IMG/VR virus record: IMGVR_UViG_3300048922_000467
Location: 1 to 64,000 of that record
Length of the DNA: 64,000 bases
Source of the DNA: a virus
Strand: one strand, 5' to 3'
Shown here: positions 20,737 through 56,880 of the stretch, piece after piece
How positions within the stretch are numbered: position 1 is the stretch's first letter
How the letters are laid out: every line of letters starts with the position of its first letter
Notes under the pieces: model-generated
The model's input: only the letters and a program-made list of their open reading frames with translations
What the model was told of the DNA's origin: nothing
Database searches by the model: none
Program-made: the position numbers and the translations under genes

Positions 20737-21900
20737 TCAGTGGCCACCGAGCCTCAGCGCACGTTCAGGGCTCACGGTTTTCAAGCCGCAGAGGGTTTCA
20801 AATTTCCACTGAGTGGACTCGGTGCGAGGCTCGTACCAGCGAAGCATGCGGAGCGAGATTCCGGTGCGTGGGTCAGTCATCTGCGCAATGTTCACGCCAG
20901 CAGCGTCTTCTGGCACTTCGAGATTGCGGAAGGCGATCAGGAATGCGGACTTGGTGAAGGCCAGGTCGATCGGGTGATCGCCGAGGACGCTGACAGCAGA
21001 GCCAGAGGCGATGGCTTCCAGGACTGCCGGGTAGACTGGGACTGCAGAGCCTGCTGTGTCAGCAGTGACTACGAAAGTCTGATGGCTGCCAGCAACAGAG
21101 ATCACGTCGCCTTTCAGGAATGTCGCACCGTTCACTCCCGCCAGGGCAAGCGTAGTAGAGCCAGCTACTGCCTGTGCAGACAGGGTAATGCCGGCGTTTG
21201 CAGCTGCAGTGCCTGCGACGTGGTACGGAGCTTGAACGTCCGAGTACAGATCGAACCCATACTTGCGACCGATCAGGCCCTGGCTGACCACGTTCGCATC
21301 ACCGCTTTCGTTGATCTTCGAGAACTCAAGCAGCAGGTCAGCTTCAGTGTCCGAGGTCAGGACAATACTGCGACCGTTCAGGATTTTGCGGTTCTGCATT
21401 TCCTTCCGAGCGGCGATCAGATCGGACTTGTCGCGGCCAGCGGTCGAAGCCGGATTGCCCGAGATGTACGGGATGTCCTTGTACAAGCTGAACAGGTTTT
21501 TGTTGACGGTACGGCCAATGGCATCAACAGCAGCGGCAGCAGCAGACGGCAGAGTCAGCGAGTTCGCGTGCGCCAGGAACTCAGCGTCTTTCATCGCGAA
21601 CTGCTTGTACAAGTGCCGATCAAGCTTCACGTCGACTTTGCCGGCAGTGATGTCCTCAGACTGCGAGCCAGCCGAATCAGTTGGATGGTCTTCAGCATCC
21701 GAGAACTCGATCGGCTTTGCGATTCGGATCGTATCACCATGATTTTTTGCCTCATCGGCTGTATCGACGCTGACAAGATGGGGCATCGTCAGCTGGCCGT
21801 ATAGACGATCAATGGCCAGGGGCAGAATCACCTCTGTCATCAGGGCTTCAGTGTCATTGCCGTGGCGTACAAGAGCCAGGAGCGGGAGCATTGCAGTCAT
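20737..21900 (-). CDS. Major capsid protein (P22 coat-like family)
   Basis: GDTIRI..P, G.IGR.YGFD.Y, L.F.K.AF..A.R.L, G.K...PE.A motifs. Confidence 0.9.
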   Translation of the reverse strand: MTAMLPLLALVRHGNDTEALMTEVILPLAIDRLYGQLTMPHLVSVDTADEAKNHGDTIRIAKPIEFSDAEDHPTDSAGSQSEDITAGKVDVKLDRHLYKQFAMKDAEFLAHANSLTLPSAAAAAVDAIGRTVNKNLFSLYKDIPYISGNPASTAGRDKSDLIAARKEMQNRKILNGRSIVLTSDTEADLLLEFSKINESGDANVVSQGLIGRKYGFDLYSDVQAPYHVAGTAAANAGITLSAQAVAGSTTLALAGVNGATFLKGDVISVAGSHQTFVVTADTAGSAVPVYPAVLEAIASGSAVSVLGDHPIDLAFTKSAFLIAFRNLEVPEDAAGVNIAQMTDPRTGISLRMLRWYEPRTESTQWKFETLCGLKTVSPERALRLGGH

Positions 21901-22015: not shown

Positions 22016-22786
22016 TCAGTTGATGACGATCTCGCCTGATGCTCTTTTTGCGAGCAAGGCTTTCTTTTCTTCTGCGCTTGCCGCGATCAAGGTGCGTTGC
22101 CATTCTGCAGTGCTGATGGCTTTTCCCGCTCCTGTGACGCCCCTGGAGCCGGAACCTGGCATTTGCTTGAAGTAGTGCGGTTTCGTTGCTGTGAGCCCGG
22201 AAATCCACTCGTCAGGTGTCAGAGGCCTGCCGTTTTTACCGATGGCGATGTTCCCGCTTGAGTCACGTGCTACGAGCTCCCCGGCGTCATTGAGCTGCCA
22301 AGTGTTGCCGGCAACGGACATCAGATCATCGAGCGCCGAGGGGTGGAAGAATTCATTTTTGAGCGCCACCTGGCCGATGCTTTGCTTGATCTGGAACTGC
22401 TTGAGCTTAAGTCTTTCGCCATCAACAGCTTTGCGAAGATCTTCTTTTTCGGCTTGCTCCGCTGCCAACTTCTCTTGCCAGGTGGCACTGTTGGCGTTGA
22501 CGCGCTTATCGAGCAGTGTTTGCAGATCCAGCTTGCCAGCTTTCAGAGCATCAAGATCGTCCTTCTCCTGAATGCCTGCTTCAAACGCCTTCATCCGCTC
22601 TGCCAAGGTTTTCTTCTCGTTCAGAAGATCGGCGTTTTTACTCTTTAGCGGAGTGACTTCTTTCTCTACGTGAGCTTTTAAGAAGTCTAGGAAGGCAGGG
22701 TTTTCCTGCAGGGCATTGAAGTCCAGTGGCGGAACTTCATCTTCGCCGAAGCGAATAAGGCTTACCAGCTTGTGCATCTGAAACAT
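22016..22786 (-). CDS. Capsid scaffolding protein
   Basis: Coiled coil, L..KN..LL.EKK, PHYF....GSG; directly upstream of capsid. Confidence 0.8.
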   Translation of the reverse strand: MFQMHKLVSLIRFGEDEVPPLDFNALQENPAFLDFLKAHVEKEVTPLKSKNADLLNEKKTLAERMKAFEAGIQEKDDLDALKAGKLDLQTLLDKRVNANSATWQEKLAAEQAEKEDLRKAVDGERLKLKQFQIKQSIGQVALKNEFFHPSALDDLMSVAGNTWQLNDAGELVARDSSGNIAIGKNGRPLTPDEWISGLTATKPHYFKQMPGSGSRGVTGAGKAISTAEWQRTLIAASAEEKKALLAKRASGEIVIN

Positions 22787-23573: not shown

Positions 23574-23921
23574 TCACCATTCATTGATTTGCCCGAGCAC
23601 CTCCCATGTGAGGGCATCAAGCGTGATTTTGTCGAACTCAGTGACTCGGAATTCGTACGTTGTGTGCCTAAACTTAAAGACTCCAGCGCTTAGCACGTAC
23701 TGAATCATGCACCTGAAAACCTCCCAGCAGGCATGGTCGCCAAGCTCTGCTTCGATGCCCCATTCTTGCAGGGCCTTCTGACGTTTCCCGCGAAAACAAT
23801 GTGACGCTCCTGAGTAAAAGTTTTTTGCCTTATCGAATCCACCGCAAAGATAAATGGCGCAAAGGTGTCGGGTGGATTCGTCGCAAGCCAGCACTGGCAC
23901 TACCAATGGATTAGCTGTCAT
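23574..23921 (-). CDS. Hypothetical protein
   Basis: 115 aa, A-rich leader. Confidence 0.65.
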   Translation of the reverse strand: MTANPLVVPVLACDESTRHLCAIYLCGGFDKAKNFYSGASHCFRGKRQKALQEWGIEAELGDHACWEVFRCMIQYVLSAGVFKFRHTTYEFRVTEFDKITLDALTWEVLGQINEW

Positions 23922-24061
23922 TTCGGGTGCTCATTCTTATTATTTTTATGCTTCATTATTAGCATTGAGCGGGGCTAAAATCAATATCATGGCACTTACT
24001 AATTAGCTCGGACACCACCGTCCTGGCGGATTTGGCTTGACCAGTAAGCAAGCCTGCGACA

Positions 24062-24077
24062 CTGTATATATGTCCAG
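24062..24077 (+). promoter_or_regulatory. LexA (SOS) box upstream of umuD
   Basis: CTGTATATATGTCCAG. Confidence 0.85.
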
Positions 24078-24100
24078 CAACCTGCCCGTAGTGCATCGCC

Positions 24101-24520
24101 ATGCTCACTCAACTCCCACATCTGTCGCTCAGTCAAATCCCGCTCCCCCTGCAGCTCTGCAAGCTCAAGGCCGGCTTTCCATCACCAGCCCTGGACTACG
24201 TCGAAGACAGACTGACGCTGAATGACGTGGTTAAGCTCGATCCCAGGTACTGCTATCTATGCCAAATTGATGGCGATTCCATGATCGACTACGGCATCCA
24301 GCCCGGAGATGTAGCAGTGATCAGCCGCAACGAGCCAGCCAGGCCTGGGAAGATTGTGGTCATCAGCATCGACGGTCAGAACACGCTTAAGCTGCTGTCT
24401 GAAGATGACCAGGGCCCGGTGCTCCTCGCCGGCAACAGCGCTTACAAGCCGATTCGGCCAGGTGACGGTGAGGAGTGGGTATTTCATGGGGTGCTGATCG
24501 CATGCACGCGCCTGTTCTGA
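24101..24520 (+). CDS. umuD: Pol V accessory subunit UmuD/RulA (S24 peptidase)
   Basis: AGFPSPA.DY, GDSM, K catalytic motifs. Confidence 0.92.
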   Translation: MLTQLPHLSLSQIPLPLQLCKLKAGFPSPALDYVEDRLTLNDVVKLDPRYCYLCQIDGDSMIDYGIQPGDVAVISRNEPARPGKIVVISIDGQNTLKLLSEDDQGPVLLAGNSAYKPIRPGDGEEWVFHGVLIACTRLF

Positions 24521-25812
24521 AGCCAGAATGGCGTCTGAGCGCAAATCAAAAGCGTGTGTACGCCTTGGTCGACTGCAATTCATTCTACGCAAGCTGTGAG
24601 CGGCACCCCCTTTGGCGCCCTGATCTTGCTGGGCTGCCGATAGTGGTGCTGTCGAACAACGATGGTTGCGTGATTGCTCGCTCCAAGGAAGCTAAGACCT
24701 TGGGGTACAAGATGGGTGACCCGTACTTCAAGATCCGCGACCAACTCGCCAACCAGGGCGTCCACGTATTCAGTTCGAACTACACGCTGTATGACGATCT
24801 CAGTAGCCGCGTGATGCTCACCCTGGCCGACTTCGCGAGCGAGCTGGAGGTGTATTCGATTGACGAAATGTTCCTCGATCTGACGGGCATGCGGGGCTAT
24901 CAGGTGATGGCCGAAGAGATGAAGGAGCGCGTGTTTCGATGGACTGGAATTCCCGTTGGCGTTGGGATCTCTACGACCAAGACCCTGGCGAAGCTCTCAA
25001 ACTGGGCTGCGAAAAACTGGAGAGGCCTTCCTGGTGTTGCAGTAGTACTTGACGATCAGCGGCACGAGCTGTTGCTCAAGCGTGCACCAATTGGGGAGGT
25101 TTGGGGGATCGGGCGTCGCTGGGCTGAGAAGCTGGAAGCCAAGGGCATCGTCACAGCCTGGCACTTGGCATGCGCGGACAACGAGGCTGTCGGTAGAGAG
25201 TTCAACGTCGTACTACAGCGGACTGCTCTAGAGCTCCGAGGCATCCCTTGCAATGATCTGGAGCTCCAGGCTCCGAAGAAAAAGCAAATCATCAGCTCAC
25301 GTGCGTTTGGAAGCCGGCAACAGGGGTGGAAACCAATTGAGCAGTCGATTGCCAGCTACGTTGCCCGCGCAGCTGAGAAACTCAGAGCTCAGGGGTCGGT
25401 TTGTCGGAAGATTGATGTTGGTCTCATTGTGAGGAAAGCCACGTCGGAGAGCTTCAGTGATGCGTACTCTTCAGCGACAGCCAGACTTCAGCAGCACACC
25501 GACGACACTCTCACGCTTCAAGGGGCGGCTGTTTCTTTGGCTAAGATAATCTTCGACGACAATGCAGTTTATGCAAAGTCCTCCGTGGCATTGAGCGAGA
25601 TCTGCCAGCCAGAAGACCTCACTACGGACATGTTCGCTGCTGCCAGCTCACAAAGCCCCAGAGCTAAGGTTCTCGATCAGATCAATGCCAAATTTGGCAA
25701 AGGCGCTCTGCGCTCAGCTACGACCATTGGCGACATGCAGTGGAGCATGCAACGTGGGCACCTGAGCCCTTACTACACTACGCGCCTGTCCGACCTGCCG
25801 AAGCTTCGGTAA
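24502..25812 (+). CDS. umuC: Y-family DNA polymerase V UmuC/RulB
   Basis: ALVDCNSFYASCE, VLSNNDGCVIARS, YSIDE, W.M.R..LSP.YTT. Confidence 0.95.
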   Translation: MHAPVLKPEWRLSANQKRVYALVDCNSFYASCERHPLWRPDLAGLPIVVLSNNDGCVIARSKEAKTLGYKMGDPYFKIRDQLANQGVHVFSSNYTLYDDLSSRVMLTLADFASELEVYSIDEMFLDLTGMRGYQVMAEEMKERVFRWTGIPVGVGISTTKTLAKLSNWAAKNWRGLPGVAVVLDDQRHELLLKRAPIGEVWGIGRRWAEKLEAKGIVTAWHLACADNEAVGREFNVVLQRTALELRGIPCNDLELQAPKKKQIISSRAFGSRQQGWKPIEQSIASYVARAAEKLRAQGSVCRKIDVGLIVRKATSESFSDAYSSATARLQQHTDDTLTLQGAAVSLAKIIFDDNAVYAKSSVALSEICQPEDLTTDMFAAASSQSPRAKVLDQINAKFGKGALRSATTIGDMQWSMQRGHLSPYYTTRLSDLPKLR

Positions 25813-25831
25813 AGCGTTTCTCTTAACCAAA

Positions 25832-26518
25832 TCACTTGCCCAGGTCAGCCCCGATTAGATAGTCAATCGACTCAAACTTCCCGGCATCCATTAGCCGTTG
25901 ACGAAGTACCTGCATAAACTCTTTGTCATTCTTCAAAAACTTGTCGCACTCAGAATCAGTTTGGCACTCATCCAGAATATCGGCACGTTCCGGATTAACA
26001 ACGCGATAGCGGCGAATGAATTCCTCACGCTTCTTATCATGAAAGCTCTGAATAAGTGACTTCATACTTCCTCCATAGATCATATCTTTAAACTTACCCA
26101 TGTACCTAAGGGAAAATTTCATCAGGGCTAAGTCATTTCTAGCGGACAGGCCCCAGTAGTACTCATCTGCCGCATTTTCTTTGACAATGAGAATCTTGTC
26201 TAGTCTAGAAACAAAGCCCTGCACCCAGGCAATGCCAGCAATCTCATTCCCGAGCTCATGAAACAGCAGGTCTTCGTCAGCAATCGATTCAACCAAAGCC
26301 CAGACCTTATAAAATCCTCGCTCGCGATAATAACTCTCCGGCAACGCCAGGAAGTTTGAGTACAAAACAACAATCAGATCGCGCTCAGACCTGTATTCAA
26401 GGCGCTCATAGATTACATAGCCATCTTCCGCTCTGAGCAACACTGGGAATACCCATTGCAGATATCTAACAAGCGACAGTCGCATTCTCGCTCCCAGTGG
26501 CTTTTTGAACATAGTCAT
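25832..26518 (-). CDS. Hypothetical protein (3rd of AT-rich trio)
   Basis: 228-aa ORF. Confidence 0.7.
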   Translation of the reverse strand: MTMFKKPLGARMRLSLVRYLQWVFPVLLRAEDGYVIYERLEYRSERDLIVVLYSNFLALPESYYRERGFYKVWALVESIADEDLLFHELGNEIAGIAWVQGFVSRLDKILIVKENAADEYYWGLSARNDLALMKFSLRYMGKFKDMIYGGSMKSLIQSFHDKKREEFIRRYRVVNPERADILDECQTDSECDKFLKNDKEFMQVLRQRLMDAGKFESIDYLIGADLGK

Positions 26519-26882
26519 TCAGGGCGCTGCAGGCTGCGTCGACATCGCTATTCTTAAGAGACCAGTAGGCTTTGGCCATAATTGCATCCAGGGCTTCATT
26601 GCGACCCAAGTCTTCAAAGAAAACTGTGTGTAGCAGATGCCAAAGAAACTCAACATCATCAATGTTTTTTTGCTCATCCGAAATACTGTGAGCGATGCTA
26701 CTGAGGCATTCAAATTCCCAATCCACATGAACTGTCGTCTCAGAGAACGAGTAAACCTGAGCGACATAATCAAAGAACTCAATGAAAGTGGCAAACTCGC
26801 ACTCATCGAAGTAGTATTTACTACCATCGAAACGGATCGTGGCTGGAGAACAGAATTTGATGATGTTTTGCAGGTACATCAT
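26466..26882 (-). CDS. Hypothetical acidic protein (2nd of trio)
   Basis: 138 aa, overlaps both neighbours. Confidence 0.65.
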   Translation of the reverse strand: MMYLQNIIKFCSPATIRFDGSKYYFDECEFATFIEFFDYVAQVYSFSETTVHVDWEFECLSSIAHSISDEQKNIDDVEFLWHLLHTVFFEDLGRNEALDAIMAKAYWSLKNSDVDAACSALNDYVQKATGSENATVAC

Positions 26883-27694
26883 AAGCCCAGCTCCGAGCCA
26901 AACATATATTCCCGCTGCTCAGCGCTCATCATTGCCATTCTGCCACGAAGAAAACCCATGTCCCCACTTAATAGTCGACGTAGCTCATCCTCACTTTCAC
27001 AAATCGAATACAGGTGATAAGCGTGAGGCCTGTCCAACTGAAGCTCTTTTATGATTAAAGGATGCATCAAATCAAAGATATCGTCATAGGCCTTTTTCTT
27101 ATCGATACCCAGACTCAACAGATCAGCAGAAAATCTTTCCCCGACATCCGCACTAGCATGAGCCGACTCATAATTCCCCGAAAGAATGCCAGCGATACAT
27201 TTAACCTGAGAAGTCCTGGAGGAATCGCTATCTCGCTCAGTAGTTAGGTATGTGAGCCAAAGCCTTCGAAGATGATCAAGCCTCTCTTCCCTAAGCATCC
27301 CTAAAAACCTGGAAACAAAGTCATTGGGACTGGTGGCGTTGAGAGCCGCAGTTGCGAACATGGGAGTAAAACTAAGAACAGGGCCATTCCAGATCTTGAA
27401 TTTAAAGCTCACAATAACTGCGACTTCAAGAAGCGAAGAGCAGTAACGATCTACAACACCATCTACTGTTTTCAATTTCAGCAGGTAATGACCACCCTGA
27501 AAGCTAAAGCCCCCGGTCATCGAGAATCTATCGTAGTCCCCAATTTGCTCGTTCAAGACTCGCTCAAGGAATTCGTGGCTCTCAGCCGAAATCCCCATCA
27601 GCCCCCTGGCTTTGGTAAACCATCTCCACGCCGCGACTTTTGGCTTCAAAAGCTTGAGTAGTAGCCTGTCTTTCGGAGTGATGAAGGTAAGCAT
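26879..27694 (-). CDS. Hypothetical protein (1st of trio)
   Basis: 271-aa ORF with upstream TTGCCA-N17-CATGAT promoter-like site. Confidence 0.7.
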   Translation of the reverse strand: MLTFITPKDRLLLKLLKPKVAAWRWFTKARGLMGISAESHEFLERVLNEQIGDYDRFSMTGGFSFQGGHYLLKLKTVDGVVDRYCSSLLEVAVIVSFKFKIWNGPVLSFTPMFATAALNATSPNDFVSRFLGMLREERLDHLRRLWLTYLTTERDSDSSRTSQVKCIAGILSGNYESAHASADVGERFSADLLSLGIDKKKAYDDIFDLMHPLIIKELQLDRPHAYHLYSICESEDELRRLLSGDMGFLRGRMAMMSAEQREYMFGSELGL

Positions 27695-27791
27695 GACCAG
27701 CTCTCAATATCATGGCAGTTATTGACAGATTGGCAATGGAGGGTAGGAATGTCAAGGGCCCAGCGGGGTGCCAGGCCATGGGGTGTGGGGG

Positions 27792-28067
27792 CTAGGCGGT
27801 TTTCAGGCGCTCCAGGCGTTCCTGGGCAATCCGGGCAAGGCAGGCATGAAACTCAGCCAGGCAAGCAGCGGCGCACTGCTGTTGCCATTTTGGGAGCTGC
27901 TTGAGATCAGGGCGATCAGCGGGTTTTCGAGTGTCTTGCTGAGCAAGTCTGAAGCACTCGTCTACACAAAAATCCTCGACCTTGGGAGCAACCTGAAAAA
28001 GGAAGTATGTGCCGGACGAATACTCAATTGCGGCCTTGGCGTCTGCGTAAATTTTGGTGATGTTCAT
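27792..28067 (-). CDS. Hypothetical protein
   Basis: Start MNITKIY after leader GCATAACAATAAGAGAG. Confidence 0.6.
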   Translation of the reverse strand: MNITKIYADAKAAIEYSSGTYFLFQVAPKVEDFCVDECFRLAQQDTRKPADRPDLKQLPKWQQQCAAACLAEFHACLARIAQERLERLKTA

Positions 28068-28137
28068 GAAGCGCTCTCTTATTGTTATGCCCTTGCATAC
28101 TGTCACTATGCAGGTGGAGCAAAAGAGAGCGCAACAC

Positions 28138-28836
28138 TTAATATGAGCCTTCTGCGCGCCAATTGAGGAACCGACACACACCCTCTATATCTGGATAAAT
28201 AGACTTTGAGGTAACACCGCAGCGCTCCAGGGTCATCAGGAAATCGACCTTGTCCTTACCCGCAATCACATACTCCTTCAGATACTTTTTGACTTCAGGG
28301 TTTCGTTCCAGGGGGACGAACTTCCCAGACTTTTCAGAAAACCTGTGGGCAGTAAAGTAGCCAGACTGCGCGATAATCCTATCGTTGCTAAGATTTGGGT
28401 TAATCACCCTGGTCTTTCGTTGGCTGAAGGGACTACCTTTGAGTGATGGCAGCATTAGCGAATGAGCTTCTAGTGTGTAGACATAGCAGTCATCCGTTCC
28501 CCTGGAGCTACAAGCAAAGTAGATTGCAGCCAGGGCATTCGAAGTCCAGTCCAACAGCCTGGTTTTCATTCCAAAATGCTGAGCAAGAACGAGCATATCC
28601 CAATCATTGTCAATGTCGACATAGCTGGGAATCATCGTCAGCCCGTGCCGCCTCAGATCAGCCAACATCGTTTTTTCGACTGCGGTTGTGTTGTTGGTGG
28701 GATCTTTCCGTGCGATACCAGGAAGCAGGTTGCCGCGTTTTGACTGCCCGCGAAACAGCACAGTCCCGCCCACCAGGTCATAACCGCTTAGACGATTGAG
28801 GAAATCCGGAACGTCCTTGATCGGAATTGAAGTCAT
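28138..28836 (-). CDS. FRG-domain protein
   Basis: LFRGQ, AQHFG..TRLLDWT, R..AQ.G.F. Confidence 0.9.
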   Translation of the reverse strand: MTSIPIKDVPDFLNRLSGYDLVGGTVLFRGQSKRGNLLPGIARKDPTNNTTAVEKTMLADLRRHGLTMIPSYVDIDNDWDMLVLAQHFGMKTRLLDWTSNALAAIYFACSSRGTDDCYVYTLEAHSLMLPSLKGSPFSQRKTRVINPNLSNDRIIAQSGYFTAHRFSEKSGKFVPLERNPEVKKYLKEYVIAGKDKVDFLMTLERCGVTSKSIYPDIEGVCRFLNWRAEGSY

Positions 28837-28838
28837 GA

Positions 28839-29219
28839 TTACGCCTGCAGCCAGCTTTCGACTTCCTGAGCCCCATGCTCCAATTTCCAGGCCTTCAAGG
28901 TGCTGTGATTACCGCCTTTCGTTTCGACGACTTCGTTTGTGTGCGGGTTCACATAGCGTTTAACTGCACGAGGCGCACGCGGCCCCTTACGCCCATCAAC
29001 CTTGCCACCCGCTGCAACCACAGAAGCCCCAGCAGCCTTGGGATCGAGGATGGCAATAACGTTGCGCAGAGACATGCCGTACTCCGCCAGCAGCTTGCGC
29101 AGTTTGTCTTCAAATTCCAGCTCCCTCTGCAGGGCTTCGCTGCCTTTGAGAGCTTCCAGGGCCTGAAGCTGTTCGGCGATCTGGCGCTCTAGGGCTCTGT
29201 ATTCTGCGGCTTTTGACAT
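28839..29219 (-). CDS. MvaT/MvaU-family H-NS-like nucleoid protein
   Basis: MSK.AEYR..E, Y.NPHT.EVVETKGGNH..LK.WK. Confidence 0.92.
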   Translation of the reverse strand: MSKAAEYRALERQIAEQLQALEALKGSEALQRELEFEDKLRKLLAEYGMSLRNVIAILDPKAAGASVVAAGGKVDGRKGPRAPRAVKRYVNPHTNEVVETKGGNHSTLKAWKLEHGAQEVESWLQA

Positions 29220-29338
29220 TAGTGGTGCTCCGTTTTAGTAAATGCCATGAAATATACATAGGTTGTAGCCGCTGTCAAATTCAAGCCATGACTACATATT
29301 GGACGAGCCGAGAATAGATTCATTCGGGCATTGCCTTA

Positions 29339-29354
29339 CTGTATGGGCATACAG
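29339..29354 (+). promoter_or_regulatory. LexA (SOS) box
   Basis: ta-CTGTATGGGCATACAG-ta. Confidence 0.9.
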
Positions 29355-29398
29355 TATATTTAAGTCAGTAGCCAATAAAAACAACAAGAGAAAAAGAC

Positions 29399-29593
29399 AT
29401 GCAAGGCACGATCATTATCAAGAATGGCTTATTCAACAACGCCTTCGAAATTCGAGACTGCGAGATAACCCTTAGCGATACAGCGAGCGTCAGCGAAGAT
29501 TGCGATTCGAACAAGAAATATGCTGAATTGACATACCGAGGCGACTCATTTCTGCATAAGTGTGTTGAGGATGTGAAAGCGCGCTTCCAGTAG
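29399..29593 (+). CDS. SOS-controlled small hypothetical protein
   Basis: 64 aa after LexA box; terminator at about 29610-29635. Confidence 0.7.
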   Translation: MQGTIIIKNGLFNNAFEIRDCEITLSDTASVSEDCDSNKKYAELTYRGDSFLHKCVEDVKARFQ

Positions 29594-29674
29594 CCATCAG
29601 ATCACAGAGAGGCTCACCCGCGAGCCTTTTGTTTTCAAATCCACCTGCAGCACATAATAATAAGAGAGAAGACA

Positions 29675-30121
29675 GTGATCTACAGCATTCACAAGAACGC
29701 CAGCCTATTTCATATAGTCGTTAAAGGCCGAACGATGCTTCTGATGGAGCTTTTTATGGGCTCAGACCACCAACACAAACTTGGCAATGGTTATCGATTC
29801 ATGGTTGCTGCTAAGCGACTTTTGGGAGATGGCTGCCTGAAAACGATAGCCAGCAAAAGGGCTGAGGGCGGTGCTCTAGTGCCCTACAAGGATACGTATA
29901 AGTACGTGGGCTCAGGAGTCTATGAGTTTTACAACGAAGTTAATGAAGAGCTCGTCAGGGCCTTTTTTGACGATAGGATTGGCATGGATGACCTGCGTTG
30001 CATCAAAGGGGACTACTTAGCCGCCCACATCGTTAAGCAAATTGACAGCCAAATGCCTGGCTACAGGGAAAAGTACGCCATGCGAATGTCGAGAGGAGCC
30101 TTGGGCTGGGTTTTCGAATGA
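29675..30121 (+). CDS. Hypothetical protein
   Basis: 148 aa; leader GCAGCACATAATAATAAGAGAGA; terminator at 30126-30146. Confidence 0.7.
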   Translation: MIYSIHKNASLFHIVVKGRTMLLMELFMGSDHQHKLGNGYRFMVAAKRLLGDGCLKTIASKRAEGGALVPYKDTYKYVGSGVYEFYNEVNEELVRAFFDDRIGMDDLRCIKGDYLAAHIVKQIDSQMPGYREKYAMRMSRGALGWVFE

Positions 30122-30217
30122 GCATGCCCCCGCCAGGGGGCTTTTTGTTTACAAACAGTTTTTCTTAACCAAAACACATGCGCAACCCAACCCTGCCTCA
30201 GGGCCGCATTTGAGTAT

Positions 30218-31117
30218 CTACTCCTTTTCTGCGGATCTTTTCTTTGCATCCTCCAGAATGCCGGGGACGTGCAATGCTACGAAAAGGAGAAAGGAGAAGG
30301 CTTTCATACTGTTTATTTCGGTGCCGTAGTCTGAAACCTCCCCATGCATGACCTGATGACGATTTAGGGCGTCAAAAACCTTACCAGTTTCGCGAACCTT
30401 TGCGTTACGGGCTCCCTGGCTTTTCAGGATATCGAGCTCATGTAACTCCAGCGCTGGAAGCAGACTGCCCATAGTTTTTGCGTCAGCACCAATTTGAGTA
30501 CTCAGCCATTGACTTCCCTTGATGAGATTCTGCCCTTTCACCTTGTCCATCGCTGAAGGGATGCCTGTCACTTCAGAAAAGATGCCATCTGCCTGAGCCA
30601 AGAATACAGGAATGCTCAGCGAGTAGCCGGCTGGAGCGAGGCTTCTGTGAGCGTTAATTGCCGCATGAATGGCAGTTGTGCGAGACGGATATTTTTCTGC
30701 CAGCAGCTCCGAGTAGTAGTCCCAATAATCGTTGTAGTAGGCCATCAATATTGTATCGATGTCACTAGCGCTCTTGGCTTCCCGAATGCTCTCCGTAAGC
30801 TCCATCACATCCTGAAATCCGCCTTGCCAGTTAAAAAACCAACCCTCACGGGAAGCTACTTTCATGGCTTGGCTTGAGGCCTCAGGGAAGCTCTCCAGGC
30901 GCTCCTGCACATGCTTCCAATCAACGCTAGCAACCCATTGGATCACTGGCGCAATCTGGGTGCCTATATCAGACAACCATTTGCCAAAAGACAGCAGGGA
31001 CTCCTGGATGTGAGGGGCGTGCTTTTGGAGTGCCTGAGCCAATACCTCCGCAATCCGCTGATTTTGGAGGTTTATGGCTTCATCGATGACATTTTTCTCG
31101 GGCATGAGGGCGCTCAC
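30218..31117 (-). CDS. Hypothetical protein with C-terminal HEPN-like Rx4H
   Basis: LNRHQVMHG and SIPVFLAQADGI. Confidence 0.65.
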   Translation of the reverse strand: MSALMPEKNVIDEAINLQNQRIAEVLAQALQKHAPHIQESLLSFGKWLSDIGTQIAPVIQWVASVDWKHVQERLESFPEASSQAMKVASREGWFFNWQGGFQDVMELTESIREAKSASDIDTILMAYYNDYWDYYSELLAEKYPSRTTAIHAAINAHRSLAPAGYSLSIPVFLAQADGIFSEVTGIPSAMDKVKGQNLIKGSQWLSTQIGADAKTMGSLLPALELHELDILKSQGARNAKVRETGKVFDALNRHQVMHGEVSDYGTEINSMKAFSFLLFVALHVPGILEDAKKRSAEKE

Positions 31118-31340
31118 CTACCTGGCGGGGCCTTTATTTAGCCACAACCAGTCGCCGCAGGCGATGAGCTCGCATTTCTCGCTACAGATACCCCAGGCCG
31201 CAGCTGGATCAACATGCAAAGCCTGGGGCCTGTGCTGCACGATTTTGCAGTCAAAAAGCTTTTTGAAAGTCTACCGCGCTGACCAGGGCAAGGAGCACCT
31301 GGCCTGGGTTTCTGAGCTCGGGCTGGCGGGGGATCTGGGG

Positions 31341-32117
31341 CTATGATGCCTGGCGCTGCATCCAATAGATCGACGCCTCAACAACTTCCAGAACTCGAAG
31401 CTTGAGCGTCTGTTCCATCAAGTTCATGTCTCGTTTGTACTTTTCAAAAGTAGCTACGCATGCTGGATCAAGGCGCTGCTGCTCGCTCAGCTCGTTGCCG
31501 AGGTTTTCAGGGAATGGGTGCAAGGGCCATGAACCATACTGATCTGCCAGCAGCCGCACTTTGTCTGTGAGAACCAGCCAGTCGAGCGCATGGTCAGGTG
31601 ATATTGACGCTGCCAACGTAAGGCCGTGCTGGAAATCCGGATACCTGGAGTGAGCGGTTTCCATTGCAAATTTGAGCTTGAGAATTTGAGCCCCCGTAAC
31701 AATCGAGCTCTTGTGGGCCTTCAAGTTGTCCAGAGCCAGGATGGATGGGTCGATCGATGTGATCGGTGTTTCGTGACCGAAAACCCGAGTGCGCTCGTAG
31801 GCGTCAATGACGGAGGCTAGGATCAGATTCAAAGGCGTTAGCGTCAGCGTCTCCCTTCGGTAGCTGGGTATGAGCTCGATCACTACATAGAACACATACG
31901 CAGAAAACAGCCCGACAAGAAGGTCACTGCTGACACTACCGGTGGCCTCGGCAGAGAGAAAGGCAGCAATCTTGCCCCCTTTCAGCCAGGGCCAAACCTC
32001 CAGCTGGAGGTTGATCAGGATGATGAGACCCAGAACAGTGAGAGCAGCTGCTAGTAGCCACTTTTCCCTCGTTTCACGCCATACCCACATGACCCAACTC
32101 TCCCTGAAATCCGGCAA
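31341..32117 (-). CDS. Two-TM membrane-anchored hypothetical protein
   Basis: Two N-terminal hydrophobic helices plus a soluble domain. Confidence 0.65.
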   Translation of the reverse strand: MPDFRESWVMWVWRETREKWLLAAALTVLGLIILINLQLEVWPWLKGGKIAAFLSAEATGSVSSDLLVGLFSAYVFYVVIELIPSYRRETLTLTPLNLILASVIDAYERTRVFGHETPITSIDPSILALDNLKAHKSSIVTGAQILKLKFAMETAHSRYPDFQHGLTLAASISPDHALDWLVLTDKVRLLADQYGSWPLHPFPENLGNELSEQQRLDPACVATFEKYKRDMNLMEQTLKLRVLEVVEASIYWMQRQAS

Positions 32118-32194
32118 GGATACCGGCAGGGAGGCCGTTTGACATCAAAACATGGCGTGGCCCATCTCTCCTGCGAGCGACGGCTCACAGGACA

Positions 32195-33142
32195 TCATTC
32201 GCCAATTGCGGTTTGGGCGGTCTTTTTCTCTAGGCTGCACAACATAACGATTGCAGATGCGGTCATGTGCAAAACGTATGCAGCGATCTCAGGCTCAACT
32301 TCTGAGACCTCCGAGCCTTGACCGTGCCCACCCTCCTTATTACGGATGGTTGGAACACTGCTTTCCAACAAGGTTGAGAGAGCATTCAGGTGGTTCTGGT
32401 GATACGACGGCAGGAAGTTATTAGCCAGGAGTACAGCCAGAAGCCTTTTAGCTGGTGAGGTCTTATCGTACTCCCACCCTCGAAGCTCCAGCACCACCTT
32501 GATGGTACTTTCAAAGGCCTTTAGTGCATCATTCAAGGCTTCTTTGAGGTTGCTATGCCGATAGTGCTCATATGCGCCAAGAAACTCATCTCTCGGGCCT
32601 GCGTATTCCGCTTGATTCAGAAAGCTTATTGCTGGCTTGACTGCTTCAGCGTGAAGAAACTCGGAGTCTATTCTAAGAACTCTTCCATCATTTATCTCGT
32701 ACCCCTTGCCATGCTCTTTGAATCGCGTGTTTAACTCGGAAACACACTCGTCAATGTAAGCGCCCGTATCCTCTTTGGGATATCGATAGGTATACGATTT
32801 ATCTCGGTAAGATTCCGCGATTACGAAGCAGAGTTCAATAGCATCAAGAACTCGATCAATGTCCCGTTCGATTGAAATGAACTGACCCAGCTCATCCATC
32901 ACTGTTGACCGAGCATGGAGACCTGTCACCAGCTTGTAGACCCCATATTCCCGCCGAAGCACTTCGCAAATGCTTCCGTAATTACGCTCCTGCTCATTAC
33001 GATCTTGAATGCCAAGTACATCGTCGATCACATAGCATATCTGAGCACGAAGGTTGGCATTGAAGTCGTCGTACGTGTAGACATCGGGTTCCAGACCCAG
33101 CTCACGCTTCCTACGTTTTGAATACAAATCGATGACTGGCAT
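32195..33142 (-). CDS. AbiJ-like / Abi_C (HEPN) abortive infection protein (STM4504-like)
   Basis: SKR....PDVY.YD...LR.Q N-terminus; KAFEST.K, RNKEGGHG C-terminus. Confidence 0.8.
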   Translation of the reverse strand: MPVIDLYSKRRKRELGLEPDVYTYDDFNANLRAQICYVIDDVLGIQDRNEQERNYGSICEVLRREYGVYKLVTGLHARSTVMDELGQFISIERDIDRVLDAIELCFVIAESYRDKSYTYRYPKEDTGAYIDECVSELNTRFKEHGKGYEINDGRVLRIDSEFLHAEAVKPAISFLNQAEYAGPRDEFLGAYEHYRHSNLKEALNDALKAFESTIKVVLELRGWEYDKTSPAKRLLAVLLANNFLPSYHQNHLNALSTLLESSVPTIRNKEGGHGQGSEVSEVEPEIAAYVLHMTASAIVMLCSLEKKTAQTAIGE

Positions 33143-33204: not shown

Positions 33205-34533
33205 TCAGGCAGCGACGTACTCAGTGGCCAGCCTGTCCGCGTTGTCTTCGATACTGAAGTCGTTGCCCATGATCCCACGGCGCTTGAGCTCGCGAAGGTA
33301 CTCGTATTGGCTCAGGTCGCCGTTGGCCCTGGCGGTAGCAAGCGCGGTGAGCTCCTGGGCATTGGCGTTGATGCCGTAGTCAGTGTTGATGTCCACCTGG
33401 AAATCAGCGTTCGACACACGGCTGAAACGGGCGAGCATTCCGAACACAGTCTTGAGGGCAGACGCTGTGGCCGTGGCCATCGAAGCAATCTGGTTGTTGG
33501 TGTCCGAGGCGTTTAGAGAACGGCCAGTCGCTGTTTCGACCACACCAGTGTTTTGGAGCATCTCGTTGCCATGTGACGCCATCAGCACCTCCAAGTCTTG
33601 AAGGCTGTCCCTGCCGGCAGTGATCGCAGCGCCCGTGTGCTCAACAAACTTGAGATCTGCACCCTCGGCACTGCACATGATCGCGCTATCGACACCGATC
33701 TTGACGACTGTGCCCTCAGGAATTCCTTTGCCGAACAGGATTGGCACCCTGGCAACGTGCAGGATGTTGTCCTGGTCGGACTGGGACTGCCAGTGCTTGA
33801 TGTTCATGTGCGCCAGATCCTTGAGCGGAGGCTCGCAGAACAATGTGCCCCTGGTATCAGCTGGGTTTGAGTGAATCGCCACCACCGGAATCTCCGAGAG
33901 CCCGAAATCCCTCCAGGCCTCGATCTGCACGTAGTCGGCACCGTCAGACTCTTGCCAGATTGCCCACAGCACTTTGCCGTTGACCTTCCTGAACACGCGC
34001 ACCCGGCAGACCGTTTTCTCGCCCCACTCACCATCCTCGACGGTTGCCTTCTCCGAAATCCTGATCTCACGCAACTTATCATCCTCGTCGAGCTTGTAGC
34101 CCAGGATGTCATCACCGCTGAGCCAGTAGGCATAGGGCTGCCCGCCGCCGATAGGTGCATCAACACAGAGGAAGGACGACCCGTTCCACAGCGCATCCTG
34201 GAACGCCATCGCCGCCAGCGCACTCACCGAAGTCCCTTTACCGTCGATGTTGCTGCTGAACAGCTCTGCCAGCTCAGGGTGAGATTCCGAAACCACAGCT
34301 ACAGGTCTTGAGAAAGGCTTTGCAGACAAACTCTTTACGACCCTGGCCATGCGGTTGTTCAGGTACGTCCTGCATAGCCGTTTTTTGTACGACTCCGGGG
34401 TCTCGCCTGGCTCGTGCGGGAGAAATTCCTGGCCAGCAGCGCGCATTGCATCAGTGCCGCCCCGGAGTGCTCGGATGGCCCTGCGATCTGAGAAGTATTT
34501 GGAGCAGATTTCGGACTTGTCTTGTACTTTCAC
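33205..34533 (-). CDS. Portal protein (DUF4055-like)
   Basis: L.GGT.AMRAAG..LP....E....Y..RL, PPL.DLA..N..H.Q..SD. Confidence 0.9.
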
Positions 34534-34563: not shown

Positions 34564-36081
34564 TTAACCCATTATCCCATGAGAGACAGTGGTAACTGGG
34601 CGCTTCCAGGTCAGGCGATATGCCAGCGCATCCCATGCATGATCGTCAGGCCCTTTGGCCACGGCATCGAGTTGATCGTCGTCACGCTGCAGGAATGGCA
34701 GGGTCTTAATCAGGAATTTCGCAGCAGGGAAAAAGTATATGTGAGGGTTGGATGGATCTTGTACCTTGGTGGCCTGCAGCCGCCCAAACATGAGCTGCGC
34801 AGAGGTCACACGGGAGCCGGGAGACTTGTCAGAGTTCACAAAGTCGATGCCCTCAGCCTTCAAGTCCTTGGCCACTGTGGGTGCATTTCCCTGATCGACC
34901 TTTGAGCCGTTGTAGATCTGATTATCTGCTGGCCCTGGAGCGACTTTTTTGTGAGCACTCAACACCCCAGTCAGCAGCTTTTCCTCTTTCTGTTTGAGGC
35001 GTGCCCCGATCTGGCGAGCAGAGAGGAATAACCCAGCATCCGGGCGTGCCTGCTTGCCAGTTTTGGGATCGATTTCGGTGCCGTAATCCTCGCCAATCAC
35101 AACCAGGCTGCCCTTCGGAGGACAGAATTCACGATTCCCCACTCGCACAGATTCCCCGTTACTCTCGGCAACCCAGAGACAACAAAAGGGGGTGCTCTGC
35201 CCAAAGTCGAAGCACCGATCGACCTTCCAGTCAACAGGGATCTGGAACGGATCAAGCAGCAGGTTTTGAGACCAAACGGGGCCAAACATCGCTCCTGTAT
35301 CGACGGCTTCCCAGTCGCCCTCCAACCATGCAGCCCTTTTGGCCGGATCGGTGAGCTGGGCCAGGTAGTTTCGGATGTAGCCGTCGTCGATGTAGTGATT
35401 CTGAAAGATGGTGCCGAACAGTGCTGTGCGTTGCCTGGTGCCATCGGCGTTGTATGTGATCTCGCCGGGCTTGCGCCCCTCAATGAAGCGCTCATACACC
35501 CAGGTTCTGCCGGCGCCCCAGGGGTTTGTGGTGCTGCGGACTTGCAGAGGTGGCGGGAGTGGTTGTGATGGGGTCGGTTGATACGCAGTACGGAGCGTCG
35601 ACATCATTGCTTCGTAGACTTCGATCGTTGACCACGTTGCCAATTCGTCAAAGCCGATGAAGGCGTACTGGTGACCGTGGAATTTGCCGTCGTACTCCCG
35701 GACGTGTTTGATGTGATTGAAGATCAGCACCTCGCCCGTGGGGAAAGTCCATGAGTGCTTGGTCTCGTTCCATACGGCACCAGGGAAGATCCTGGGAATG
35801 AGCATGCCTGCAGTCTTCACCAGGTCAGCAAGGTGCTTGAACTCTTTCCGCAAGATGATCCCGCGCCAGTACGCACCCCAACCTTTTCCCACGTGCTGCA
35901 GGAACGCCATGATGAGTGCATCAGATTTGCCATTGCCCCTAGAGCCATGGAACAGCACTTCCCGAGTGAGGTACTGAGGCTGACCCAGCACAAGGAACAT
36001 CGACTGCGACCCAGGCAAGGGCTTCCATATGATGTTCTGCACAGCACGTGCAAGCGGACGGATCGCCTGGAAAGCACTCAT
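34564..36081 (-). CDS. terL: Terminase large subunit
   Basis: GSRGNGKS Walker A, IGFDE, TTNP, DFG, DHA.DAL.Y; start reassigned to MSAFQ (ATGA overlap). Confidence 0.93.
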   Translation of the reverse strand: MSAFQAIRPLARAVQNIIWKPLPGSQSMFLVLGQPQYLTREVLFHGSRGNGKSDALIMAFLQHVGKGWGAYWRGIILRKEFKHLADLVKTAGMLIPRIFPGAVWNETKHSWTFPTGEVLIFNHIKHVREYDGKFHGHQYAFIGFDELATWSTIEVYEAMMSTLRTAYQPTPSQPLPPPLQVRSTTNPWGAGRTWVYERFIEGRKPGEITYNADGTRQRTALFGTIFQNHYIDDGYIRNYLAQLTDPAKRAAWLEGDWEAVDTGAMFGPVWSQNLLLDPFQIPVDWKVDRCFDFGQSTPFCCLWVAESNGESVRVGNREFCPPKGSLVVIGEDYGTEIDPKTGKQARPDAGLFLSARQIGARLKQKEEKLLTGVLSAHKKVAPGPADNQIYNGSKVDQGNAPTVAKDLKAEGIDFVNSDKSPGSRVTSAQLMFGRLQATKVQDPSNPHIYFFPAAKFLIKTLPFLQRDDDQLDAVAKGPDDHAWDALAYRLTWKRPVTTVSHGIMG

Positions 36082-36515
36082 GCCCTGAAGCCCGCTTCGC
36101 GGTTTGCGCACAAGCCGTTTTTGCTTACAAACACAGCTTCGAGAACCACCATTTCGTGAAGCTTGCGGGGCTGCTGGGATTTGGGGTCTGGGTCGTGTGC
36201 CTGGTGACCGTCCCAGTACACTGCATGCAGGTTGTAGCCGCTGCGGGAGAGGATCGTCAGGATTGCGGGACGGTCTCGGACAACGTCGATGCTGCAGGGG
36301 TTGCCGGTGGTTTGGAGGTGTTGGTAGAAATCTGGAAAGGTTGCGTAGACCGGGCTCAGGCCAAGGCTCAGCAGGGCGTTGCAGGTGTCCGCTGCTGTTG
36401 TGCCACGCAGGTCTGCCTGGGGCCCAAAGCACTGCTGGGCTTGTTCGTAGGTGAGACCGAGTGCATTCGCCAGGCTGGCAATTCCGCAGTCAGTCAGAGT
36501 CCGTTGGGTGATCAT
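36078..36515 (-). CDS. Peptidase C39-like (papain-fold) cysteine protease
   Basis: Q-x5-CG.A.LA (TQRTLTDCGIASLA), H (HAVYWDG), D (HDP). Confidence 0.7.
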   Translation of the reverse strand: MITQRTLTDCGIASLANALGLTYEQAQQCFGPQADLRGTTAADTCNALLSLGLSPVYATFPDFYQHLQTTGNPCSIDVVRDRPAILTILSRSGYNLHAVYWDGHQAHDPDPKSQQPRKLHEMVVLEAVFVSKNGLCANREAGFRA

Positions 36516-37020
36516 TTGAGAGCTCTTTTGTTTTTGTTTTTGCGAGCTGTAGGGCGTCTTGTTGTTGCTGTGCGAGCACCTGGGCAATGTCCGCGTCGAT
36601 CATGGTTGTGGGAATGAGTGCGATGCCTGTTCCTGTCTCACCTCCCTCCTGACGGATTACGATTTCACGGCGTGCAGGGGCGGCGAATTGGTCTGGGAAC
36701 ATGCGCTGGAGGATATCGATGGCAACCCTCGGATCTTGCATTGCTCCTTTGAGCGCGGCGTCGGAAAGCCTTTGCCCGACCTTTGCGCGGGAGGCCTCGA
36801 TCGTGTCCAGAAACTCCAGCAGGAGCTCGTCATTCGGACTGAGATTTTCGCGTCCAGGGTTGCCGTCAGCTATGTCCTGAGCCTGGGTTTTCCAGTAGTA
36901 AAATGTGGAGCGAGGCAGCCCAACACCACCGACCGCGACCTCGATTAATGGGGTCTTGGTGAGGGCTAAACCGAGGCGCTTGATGAGATCTCTGGTGAGT
37001 GATTTGGCAGCCATGATCAC
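36490..37020 (-). CDS. terS: Terminase small subunit
   Basis: HTH G..RSTFYYW, A...L.R.FP; position. Confidence 0.7.
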   Translation of the reverse strand: MIMAAKSLTRDLIKRLGLALTKTPLIEVAVGGVGLPRSTFYYWKTQAQDIADGNPGRENLSPNDELLLEFLDTIEASRAKVGQRLSDAALKGAMQDPRVAIDILQRMFPDQFAAPARREIVIRQEGGETGTGIALIPTTMIDADIAQVLAQQQQDALQLAKTKTKELSNDHPTDSD

Positions 37021-37502
37021 TCCAGGAGGCGGATGCCGTATTTGGCGATCATCAGCGAGTCAGAGATGCCATCTTTGACTGAGGGGGTGCCGTCTTTGCG
37101 CTTACGCCCGTAGATCCCAGGGGCCTTGAAAATCTCGAATGCAACCTCGGCGGTCTGCTCCTTTGAGAGCCCGATCAGGTACTGGTGGCCTTTCCATTCC
37201 TGGGGTGTTGCGAACACCAGTCTGGCTGCGTAGACCTCTGACAGGGCCCGCACAACGCCATAGGAATCGCCGAAGCTAAACATCGACACGACACCCTGGC
37301 CTGGGCGCGCACCGACTTTCTCGATGACAGCCAGGTCAATAGCATGGGATTCAAAGATCGCCTGAAGACCTTTCGGGCAAACCTTATCCTTGCCACCGAC
37401 TTTCACCGTGGGCATGGAATAAGTTGCAATGAGGTTCAAGTTCTCGTCAATGACTGACAGACCTCCGGACTTGCCGGGGTCGATACCAAGGATTAAGCGC
37501 AT
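37017..37502 (-). CDS. RuvC-like Holliday junction resolvase
   Basis: ILGIDPG..GG, IEKV...PGQG..S.F.FG, PQ.WK, D...D...IA. Confidence 0.85.
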   Translation of the reverse strand: MRLILGIDPGKSGGLSVIDENLNLIATYSMPTVKVGGKDKVCPKGLQAIFESHAIDLAVIEKVGARPGQGVVSMFSFGDSYGVVRALSEVYAARLVFATPQEWKGHQYLIGLSKEQTAEVAFEIFKAPGIYGRKRKDGTPSVKDGISDSLMIAKYGIRLLE

Positions 37503-37524
37503 GGCGGGACTGACTTTATTATTG

Positions 37525-38283
37525 TTATTGTACAGTCATTGTAGCACTTGCTGATTGTTGTTTGTGCGCAAAAAAGCCTGGATGGCTATTCATTCCGTCT
37601 GCGCTGAGTTGTTCTTTCAGAGACGGCAGGTTACGCCCGAAGTTTTGAACAAGCCATTTGTAACGATCGGACTTCCGGAAAGCGGCTTCTTGGCCCTCAT
37701 AGCAATAGTCGAAGCCTTGCTTTTTGGCCCAGTCCTCCATCGTCATTGAAGTGCCATCAACACGAGGCTTAACCCATGGGCATTTGATATTGCGATTTGA
37801 GAAGATGAAGACGATGTGAATGTGGTTCTGCTTCGCAGCACAGATGTATTTTCTAGCAGTCTCAAGATCCGCGATAACCCCTTTGCCCTCGTAGACGATT
37901 CGATCATTTAGGGGGTCGATCCAGTCTGGCTGGTAGCTATGCTCGACATAGTAAGGAATCTTGTAAGCGGAAGGCTCGTAATCGAAGCCCTTCATGCCGC
38001 CGAAGTGCCCCATTCTGAATTCACTCCAGCTCCGATATGGGCGCGGGTAGCGAGGCAGGTCTGGAGTCTTGATGATTGACTCACCATCCTCAAACTTGCG
38101 CTGGTATGCCTGACGATTGTAGTCATTCCAAGGGAAGGCTTGCTCGACTTCATAACAAGCATCAGCACATAGCTTGAGGAGCTCGTTGTCGACATTTAGA
38201 TAGCCATGTGGCTTCTGGAAGTGTTTGGCGTATGAATCTGATTTAAAGATGTCAGCAATCTTCTGCGGATCTAGACCTTTCAC
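37525..38283 (-). CDS. T7 endonuclease I-like nuclease
   Basis: YRS..E, YE...IPY....Y.PDW, E.KG, W....GF. Confidence 0.8.
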   Translation of the reverse strand: MKGLDPQKIADIFKSDSYAKHFQKPHGYLNVDNELLKLCADACYEVEQAFPWNDYNRQAYQRKFEDGESIIKTPDLPRYPRPYRSWSEFRMGHFGGMKGFDYEPSAYKIPYYVEHSYQPDWIDPLNDRIVYEGKGVIADLETARKYICAAKQNHIHIVFIFSNRNIKCPWVKPRVDGTSMTMEDWAKKQGFDYCYEGQEAAFRKSDRYKWLVQNFGRNLPSLKEQLSADGMNSHPGFFAHKQQSASATMTVQ

Positions 38284-46393: not shown

Positions 46394-46684
46394 ATGAATG
46401 CGTGTGTGAGGGTCGAAGACATTGAGGTAGCCATTGACAGGGCAGCTGCAGAGCGCGAGCGTGCGAGGCTGGCTGAGTCGCTGGGCTATTGGACAGAGAG
46501 CCAGGTTGCGATGCTGGCGGGCGTTAAAAAGTCGACGCTAGAGTCCTGGAGGAAGCGAGCGAAAGGGCCCGACTCTATTCTCTTCGGAAACGAGCCCCTT
46601 TACTCGATTGCAGACGTTAAAGGCTATTTCGACAGCCTTGCTCAAGCCAAATCAGACCGTAGTCACATCCGAGCCGCGTTGTGA
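46394..46684 (+). CDS. HTH DNA-binding protein (AlpA/Xis-like)
   Basis: VA.LAGVK.STL..WR....GP...LY. Confidence 0.75.
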   Translation: MNACVRVEDIEVAIDRAAAERERARLAESLGYWTESQVAMLAGVKKSTLESWRKRAKGPDSILFGNEPLYSIADVKGYFDSLAQAKSDRSHIRAAL

Positions 46685-47743: not shown

Positions 47744-47746
47744 GCC

Positions 47747-56861: not shown

Positions 56862-56880
56862 GGATACCTCCCCTGCCCGC

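Follow-up and report, generated by a model that had tools for sequence, protein, structure and literature searches.

The window analysed here is the 64,000-nucleotide stretch at positions 1 to 64,000 of the IMG/VR virus record IMGVR_UViG_3300048922_000467. On its minus strand, a gene for a small protein, P0001, lies between the two terminase subunit genes in the packaging and head module of a Pseudomonas prophage. P0001 is predicted to be a C39-like, papain-fold cysteine peptidase, and the scaffolding protein and the P22-type coat protein of the same module each begin with a short, hydrophobic peptide (the leader) that ends in glycine and may be its substrate. The genes at the locus, together with the codons of the residues proposed to be catalytic, are as follows.

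37017..37502, minus strand: RuvC-like resolvase upstream of terS (phrog_1770, E 7.2e-31)
36490..37020, minus strand: small terminase subunit, terS (phrog_4102, E 1.4e-35)
36078..36515, minus strand: predicted C39-like papain-fold cysteine peptidase P0001, 145 amino acids (aa), ATG start, TGA stop (phrog_31365)
36506-36504, 36488-36486, 36227-36225 and 36194-36192, minus strand: codons of the proposed catalytic residues of P0001, Q4, C10, H97 and D108, respectively (Q-x5-C, H, D arrangement)
34564..36081, minus strand: large terminase subunit, terL (Terminase_6N, E 1.4e-5; phrog_2, E 7.7e-31)
33205..34533, minus strand: portal protein, DUF4055 type (PF13264, E 6.5e-34; phrog_145, E 5.9e-102)

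The 3' end of terS and the 5' end of the peptidase gene have 26 nucleotides in common, and at the other end the bases, read directly, form an ATGA tetranucleotide made up of the peptidase TGA and the terL ATG (at 36081). An earlier note on this DNA had described a 145-aa open reading frame (ORF) that overlaps both terminase genes and carries a Q-x5-C, H and D arrangement; both overlaps are borne out by the bases, and the codons of the four residues are in place, the residues being conserved among relatives. The P0001 ORF is a real conserved gene and goes beyond a chance ORF, as indicated by its full-length match to phrog_31365 (residues 1-145 on profile positions 1-146 of 152, E 1.8e-80) and by the 177 protein clusters that its family profile reaches at E<=1e-3. 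A longer, TTG-initiated form (169 aa, from 36587) was rejected because it has no homologue support, 29 of 29 homologues beginning at the same MI.Q.

Family and predicted fold of the peptidase

Among 5.8 billion clustered proteins, 29 homologues were found, 145-157 aa long and 62-88% identical, the named ones being from Pseudomonas and Stutzerimonas, and Q4, C10, H97 and D108 are invariant in 16 of 16 close homologues. A profile of these 16 run against 1.84 billion representatives gave the 177 clusters mentioned above, with 12 at E<=1e-10 and 3 at E<=1e-30. Nearly all members of these clusters are stand-alone proteins of 110-200 aa, relatives being mostly 130-160 aa in length. In an alignment of 81 sequences, the most distant at 24% identity, every sequence has C10 and H97, and at least 90% of them retain Q4, D9, G103, D108 and P109; the family is characterized by the signature H-x-V-Y-W-D-G-x4-D-P. 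All 81 aligned relatives match phrog_31365, which has no function in PHROGs and to which a fold, catalytic residues and a candidate substrate are added here. The nearest neighbours of P0001 in the protein atlas are viral 'hypothetical protein' clusters only.

A single-sequence AlphaFold2 (AF2) prediction of P0001 was unusable, with a predicted local distance difference test (pLDDT) of 44, and was replaced by a model from the 81-sequence alignment. The latter is papain-like, with a pLDDT of 91.9 and a predicted template modelling score (pTM) of 0.85; in it C10 opens a helix (residues 10-19) and H97 lies within a strand (96-101). The best PDB matches of this model in Foldseek are PCAT1 (8vp5, E 4.7e-4), LahT150 with bound leader (6mpz, E 6.7e-4) and ComA (5xe8, E 1.0e-3), and among predicted viral structures a Bacillus phage protein labelled 'Peptidase C39 domain-containing protein' ranks first (E 2.3e-6). 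VIA-align gives Z scores of 12.9 for ComA (root-mean-square deviation 2.7 over 116 residues), 12.5 for PCAT1 and 11.8 for LahT, with alignments spanning 113-122 residues; phytochelatin synthase follows at 11.5 and papain-like toxins at 10.8-11.3, and deubiquitinase-type folds (Josephin, UfSP, clippase) score 7-9. At the sequence level, Pfam Peptidase_C39 (PF03412) is matched by 19 of the 81 relatives when scanned singly (best E 9.7e-7), Guanylate_cyc_2 by 5 and DUF3335 by 1; the latter two families are classed near C39 (in the relevant passage of PMC10318531). The best PDB sequence for the family profile is the ComA peptidase domain (E 0.004), and searches of PDB sequences with P0001 in phmmer and with the 16-homologue profile gave chance-level matches only (E>=0.3). 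P0001 thus resembles the C39 domains of exporters (ComA, PCAT1, LahT) in papain-like fold, in size and in the order and spacing of Gln, Cys, His and Asp, with a sequence similarity at the profile level (∼20% identity), whereas it differs from them in being stand-alone, cytoplasmic, phage-encoded and without an ABC (ATP-binding cassette) transporter, and in being flanked by terS and terL. Judged from the predicted structure, P0001 is solidly assigned to the C39-like papain fold, as part of a divergent, stand-alone branch that is restricted to phages and retains the whole Gln/Cys/His/Asp set.

The structural matches also bear on other functions that a protein of this fold could have. A papain-fold toxin or exclusion factor directed against the host or competing phages, like the C39-like CdiA-CT or type VI effector proteases, draws on the presence of CdiA-CT (8ssm, Z 10.8) and of a papain-like toxin/immunity pair (9l5u, Z 11.3) among the matches. 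It is very unlikely, however, for a 145-aa stand-alone protein without a delivery domain, whose gene lies in the late structural operon, outside the cargo island at 23.5-33.1 kb, and has terminase subunits as both neighbours and no small immunity-like gene adjoining. Still less probable is a cell-wall peptidase (PeiR- or NlpC-like) that serves in lysis or genome injection, even though the pseudomurein endoisopeptidase PeiR, with a Z score of 12.2 against 12.9 for the best C39 domain, stands level with the C39 domains. The gene is outside any lysis cassette, and no hydrophobic N-terminal segment or wall-binding domain was noticed on reading the 145-residue sequence; furthermore, it is Peptidase_C39 that recurs among the 81 members, with NlpC/P60-type families absent among the 7 families listed, and the ComA domain that matches the family profile best. 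Finally, P0001 could be a catalytically dead domain that binds leaders as a chaperone, in the manner of the C39-like domain of HlyB. Inactive, substrate-tethering C39-like domains are known (described in part of PMC6363468), and HlyB-type domains are among the matches at Z 7.6-7.8; we nevertheless hold this to be the least probable of the readings considered, as conservation of the catalytic residues across 81 diverse members, as described above, is not what a dead domain would be expected to display.

Leaders of the scaffold and coat and their co-occurrence with the peptidase

The two proteins that carry the candidate substrate are encoded further along the minus strand.

22016..22786, minus strand: scaffolding protein P0031, 256 aa (phrog_206, E 1.9e-29; Shine-Dalgarno GGGGGA)
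22745..22786, minus strand: proposed scaffold leader MFQMHKLVSLIRFG, 14 residues, putative cleavage after G14
20737..21900, minus strand: major capsid protein (MCP) P0032, P22-coat type, 387 aa (phrog_283, E 1.6e-67; P22_CoatProtein, E 4.8e-23)
21859..21900, minus strand: proposed capsid leader MTAMLPLLALVRHG, 14 residues, putative cleavage after G14 (Shine-Dalgarno AGGTGA)

The first residues of the scaffold are MFQMHKLVSLIRFG-EDE and those of the coat MTAMLPLLALVRHG-NDTE, both extensions ending in [F/H]-G, and a good Shine-Dalgarno sequence precedes each leader ATG. The pattern L..L[IVLM][RKM][FHYW]G, and also a looser version of it, has exactly two occurrences in the six frames of the window, which are the N-termini of scaffold and coat. 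A likeness to the coat leader core in the ORF at 17030-17305 was put down to chance, the stretch being internal (residues 20-28) and without [F/H]-G. Within the window's Pseudomonas group (9 MCP and 6 scaffold sequences) L10, R12 and G14 are fixed; the leaders of a second lineage, that of locus L064, differ at R12 and elsewhere. The two window leaders differ at many synonymous sites, and the leader codons of relatives also vary synonymously, so that selection appears to act on the peptide; a common RNA element behind the shared leader was rejected on this ground.

Comparison with leaderless P22-type coats of the Vibrio phages KF4 and 41E34.2 reveals 13-14 extra columns after Met1 of the window coat, and the N-termini of both Vibrio coats align with N15-D16-T17, i.e. 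with its predicted mature end. The Pfam P22_CoatProtein match of the window coat begins at residue 22, which corresponds to profile position 9. Judged from these alignments, the leader is an add-on extension to the coat. No member of the peptidase family is present in the records of KF4 and 41E34.2. An internal coat start at Met21 was rejected, as the L020 lineage has no Met at that position and Met1 has a Shine-Dalgarno sequence.

A close relative of the peptidase lies between the RuvC-like gene and terL in 15 of 15 viral contigs, in the order RuvC-terS-peptidase-terL. A search of viral contigs for coat relatives gave 13 loci, of which 11 are peptidase-carrying contigs, each with a leader-bearing scaffold and coat (11/11); the twelfth is L064, and the thirteenth (28% identity) has neither leader nor peptidase in the stretch examined. 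The peptidase and both leaders are also found in 3 Pseudomonas genomes. A metagenome scan provided loci L139 and L141-L148, with peptidases 31-42% identical, and the order RuvC-terS-peptidase-terL-portal is kept in most of the metagenome loci (L138-L148), down to 31% identity. In L144 the RuvC gene is split over two frames and no terL is detected downstream of the peptidase, for which reasons it may be a decaying copy, and the L147 stretch stops inside the peptidase gene. At the lower end of this range, L148 (31% peptidase identity) has the leaders ..NLVVFQAFG-DEE on the scaffold and ..ALVVLRAFG-NDF on the coat; L142 and L143, in which only the scaffold is in view, have ..NLVVFKAFG-EDD and ..TMVVLKAFG-DEG, respectively. 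The L064/L070 lineage has the same gene order, with the portal followed directly by the scaffold, and its leaders read ..KTFLPMFG-DEG (scaffold) and ..KHLLMFG-IQD (coat). Across lineages, position -1 is always Gly, -2 is Phe or His and -5 is hydrophobic, whereas position -3 in scaffold/coat is R/R, A/A or M/M in three lineages. The identity of -3 in the two proteins of each lineage suggests that they change in parallel.

Altogether, the peptidase occurs with both leaders in 17 elements (the window, 11 viral contigs, 3 Pseudomonas genomes, L148 and L064) and with the scaffold leader, the only one in view, in 2 more (L142 and L143), with 0 discordant cases. A tree of 50 family members places 19 of the 21 that occur in the terS-terL context in one clade (support 94/91), from which L064 and L070 stand apart with weak support.

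Proposed processing of the leaders by P0001

The canonical head-maturation proteases of tailed phages are serine proteases (Peptidase_S78 of the HK97 type, ClpP/S49 of the lambda type), whose gene usually lies between those for portal and capsid and which often digest the scaffold. To our knowledge, P22-type coat/scaffold systems are generally considered protease-free, and we know of one cysteine-protease case of head maturation, that of 80alpha, in which the enzyme is borrowed from the host. P0001 is like the canonical enzymes in its proposed role, the trimming of head proteins, and in its late-operon location, whereas it is papain-like, is encoded between terS and terL, and is proposed to remove only a 14-residue tag. 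Neither Peptidase_S78 nor Peptidase_S49 is matched (0 matches) in the whole 86-kb record, and the sole CLP_protease match there belongs to a ClpP-capsid fusion of 683 aa at 67.3 kb (phrog_133), which adjoins its own portal (phrog_21) and terL (phrog_15) at ∼65-72 kb. The same set includes tail genes between 48 and 64 kb, among them those for the tape measure (53655-56912) and the baseplate (62100-63080), and then head closure. Since all of these genes lie beyond an integrase (46652-47791), they are attributed to a second, adjacent prophage. The prophage with the head genes of the window thus has no serine prohead protease, as the earlier note had stated, and no other head protease.

We propose, with a probability of roughly 55%, that P0001 is a phage-encoded cysteine head-maturation protease that trims the shared leader, analogous to the host protease Prp with 80alpha. 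In this reading the product is an active stand-alone clan-CA cysteine peptidase whose gene, through translational coupling with terS and terL on either side, would be expressed along with those for packaging and the head. Its target would be the short, hydrophobic leader at the N-terminus of both the scaffold and the P22-type coat. The enzyme would cut after the invariant Gly14, which follows Phe or His, such that the mature scaffold would start E-D-E and the mature coat N-D-T-E. As only 14 residues would be removed, the scaffold would stay essentially intact. That P0001 is active, and what it cuts, where and when, we infer by comparison. A complex prediction of the peptidase with coat residues 1-40 scored 0.01 against a mark of 0.32 and counts neither way.

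In 80alpha, the host cysteine protease Prp removes 13 (coat) and 14 (scaffold) N-terminal residues; this essential enzyme cleaves between the Phe and Ala residues of a motif that also occurs in ribosomal protein L27 (according to passages of PMC5744158). The coat and scaffold of the window resemble those of 80alpha in having a common N-terminal motif at the site of cleavage, a presumed one in the window. Prp is host-encoded and processes L27, whereas P0001 is phage-encoded, has a C39-like fold and belongs to Gram-negative hosts; no Prp-type family or structure is found among its Pfam, Foldseek and VIA-align matches. C39 domains cleave leaders after Gly-Gly, Gly-Ala or Gly-Ser, and their groove holds a short leader helix through hydrophobic residues at -4, -7 and -12, with a narrow pocket at the cut site (as given in part of PMC6363468). 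The candidate substrate of P0001 is likewise a short hydrophobic N-terminal leader that ends in Gly. The candidate site, however, is [F/H]-G followed by E, D or N, in place of G-[GAS], and the candidate leader is of 13-15 residues and sits on large structural proteins, whereas the substrates of C39 are exported peptides.

Several observations weigh against the proposal that P0001 cuts the shared leaders. A bulky residue, Phe or His, occupies P2 of the presumed site, compared with Gly at -2 in C39 substrates and the narrow pocket of LahT (the same passages of PMC6363468), and with an aromatic residue or His at -2 the S2 pocket of P0001 must differ if the shared leader is its substrate. At position -4, which is hydrophobic in C39 leaders, I or V is found in the window lineage, whereas K, Q or R is found in the lineage of L142, L143 and L148. 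P0001 alone matches 0 Pfam families at E<=0.1, and the PeiR score noted above is on a par with those of the C39 domains. The concordant elements represent one or two related lineages with a common terL, portal, scaffold and coat, so that shared descent alone could give the co-occurrence, and no independent gain or loss of the peptidase or the leaders was found among the elements examined. In 80alpha the scaffold leader is essential for assembly and its cleavage is dispensable for viability (in the part of PMC5744158 concerned), which implies that a shared leader can serve in ways other than by being cut.

The contexts of the wider family point in the same direction. Of 53 loci obtained from viral contigs in a pattern scan, 46 encode a family member. 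Outside the close group, 36 loci were mapped for ORFs, and only L064 and L070 among them display the terminase arrangement; other clades of the family lie away from head genes, and five of the 36 loci were read in detail (L064, L070, L089, L098 and L081), three of them having other large neighbours. In the complete phage G419, a family member is located 22 kb from a P22-type coat that is taken to be leaderless because its Pfam match starts at coat residue 1. Given these scattered contexts and a leaderless coat, no general tie links the family to capsid leaders. The leader-cleavage reading of the earlier note consequently holds in part: the papain/C39-like fold for which it had called is found in the AF2 model and in the Foldseek and VIA-align matches, and peptidase and leaders occur together, with no leader-bearing relative lacking the peptidase, whereas the site is not Gly-Gly, Gly-Ala or Gly-Ser, the co-occurrence stays within the one or two lineages, and the wider family is spread over phage contexts.

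Some of these points also favour the chief alternative, in which P0001 is an active peptidase with another target, either a host protein (as an anti-defence protease, a role that the earlier note had considered too, or a deconjugase of ubiquitin-like modifiers) or another phage protein, and the leader is an uncleaved assembly or chaperone signal or is removed by the host. The 177-cluster family occurs in varied contexts, with small early-type genes or other large genes nearby, the leaderless coat of G419 is accompanied by a family member, deubiquitinase-type folds (Josephin, UfSP, clippase) are among the structural matches, and the 80alpha leader shows that assembly may need a leader and not its cleavage (PMC5744158, in the same part). 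Against this, throughout its clade the window gene has a constant place within the packaging/head operon, with translational coupling to terL; scaffold and coat carry the only Gly-ended leader-like peptides of the window; and leader peptidases rank first in both structure and sequence comparisons, with the deubiquitinase-type folds far below. We regard another target as unlikely, but as the alternative to be taken most seriously.

A further pairing of leader and peptidase was sought in 7 complete phage genomes, of which only G428 yielded a convincing pair. In this complete 38.5-kb podovirus, the capsid protein (phrog_3437, 3082-3984) and the next virion protein (phrog_486, 4021-4509) have identical first 15 residues, both ending in K-G, and the family member lies among early genes at 29.6-30.2 kb. 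G428 may represent a second, independent leader-plus-peptidase pairing. No shared N-terminal peptides were found in G418, G419, G421, G424 and G427, which have distant family members, and G432 is GC-rich, with unreliable ORF calls. Searches of the 7 complete phage records with phrog_3437 and Phage_capsid gave nothing further.

Tentatively, and with somewhat less than even odds, we put forward a P22-type tailed phage with its own C39-derived protease that would cut both leaders after [F/H]-Gly, a class not described for tailed phages. No description of a phage C39/papain-like head protease was found in full-text searches of papers, supplementary files being outside the search, and phage genome papers, in the passages concerned, merely name a 'C39 family peptidase' ORF. 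If P0001 does process the head proteins, it would supply from the phage itself what 80alpha obtains from its host in Prp, would be a new enzyme class in phage assembly, would provide a function for the phage-restricted phrog_31365, and would extend C39 specificity beyond Gly-Gly, which is relevant to tag-removal tools. In that event the 177 clusters of the wider, phage-only family might serve generally as tools by which phages remove leaders from their proteins, at which the G428 pair hints. Even if the leader is not the substrate, this is a widespread phage cysteine peptidase with a target worth finding.

Further family members and neighbouring genes

Searches for additional genomic loci were largely negative. 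With P0001, P0043 and P0050, tblastn gave no match in 50,697 phage records, from which records near the window's genome were possibly excluded, and genome loci for the distant members P0043 and P0060 were sought among viral contigs with none confirmed. In 400 genomes of the class of G007 the profile gave 25 matches. The small ones lack the HxVYWDG..DP motif, belong to another stand-alone C39-like subfamily and were set aside, as were those of 720-740 aa, which, judged from length alone, resemble ABC exporters. Members of this other subfamily (L052-L061) have 132-139 aa, a Q-E-x-x-x-G-C-G-I-A start and a Y-W-H-W-V-V motif, and no terminase-like neighbours of them were seen in ORF maps. Two large proteins contain the peptidase profile repeatedly, namely P0035, a 2297-aa representative with 22 separate stretches (E 1.2e-49), and P0077, of 616 aa with 7 stretches; either may be a repeat protein or an assembly artefact.

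Upstream of terS in the window, two unlike junction resolvases lie side by side (37017-38283), the RuvC-like one (phrog_1770) and one that is T7 endonuclease I-like (PF05367, phrog_28191). In every relative examined, the RuvC-like gene adjoins the terS-peptidase-terL block. Between portal and scaffold, ∼9.5 kb of cargo (23574-33142) is inserted. It includes a gene for an AbiJ_NTD4 + DUF7014 protein (32195-33142), a gene for a protein of 258 aa (31341-32117) whose N-terminal part is hydrophobic by eye and which has no family match in Pfam and PHROGs, phrog_28904 at 30218-31117, and a plus-strand ORF at 24475-25812. Relatives are not uniform in this region: L002, L008 and L012 have the AbiJ-like gene next to the portal, on its downstream side, whereas in L064 the scaffold comes directly after the portal.

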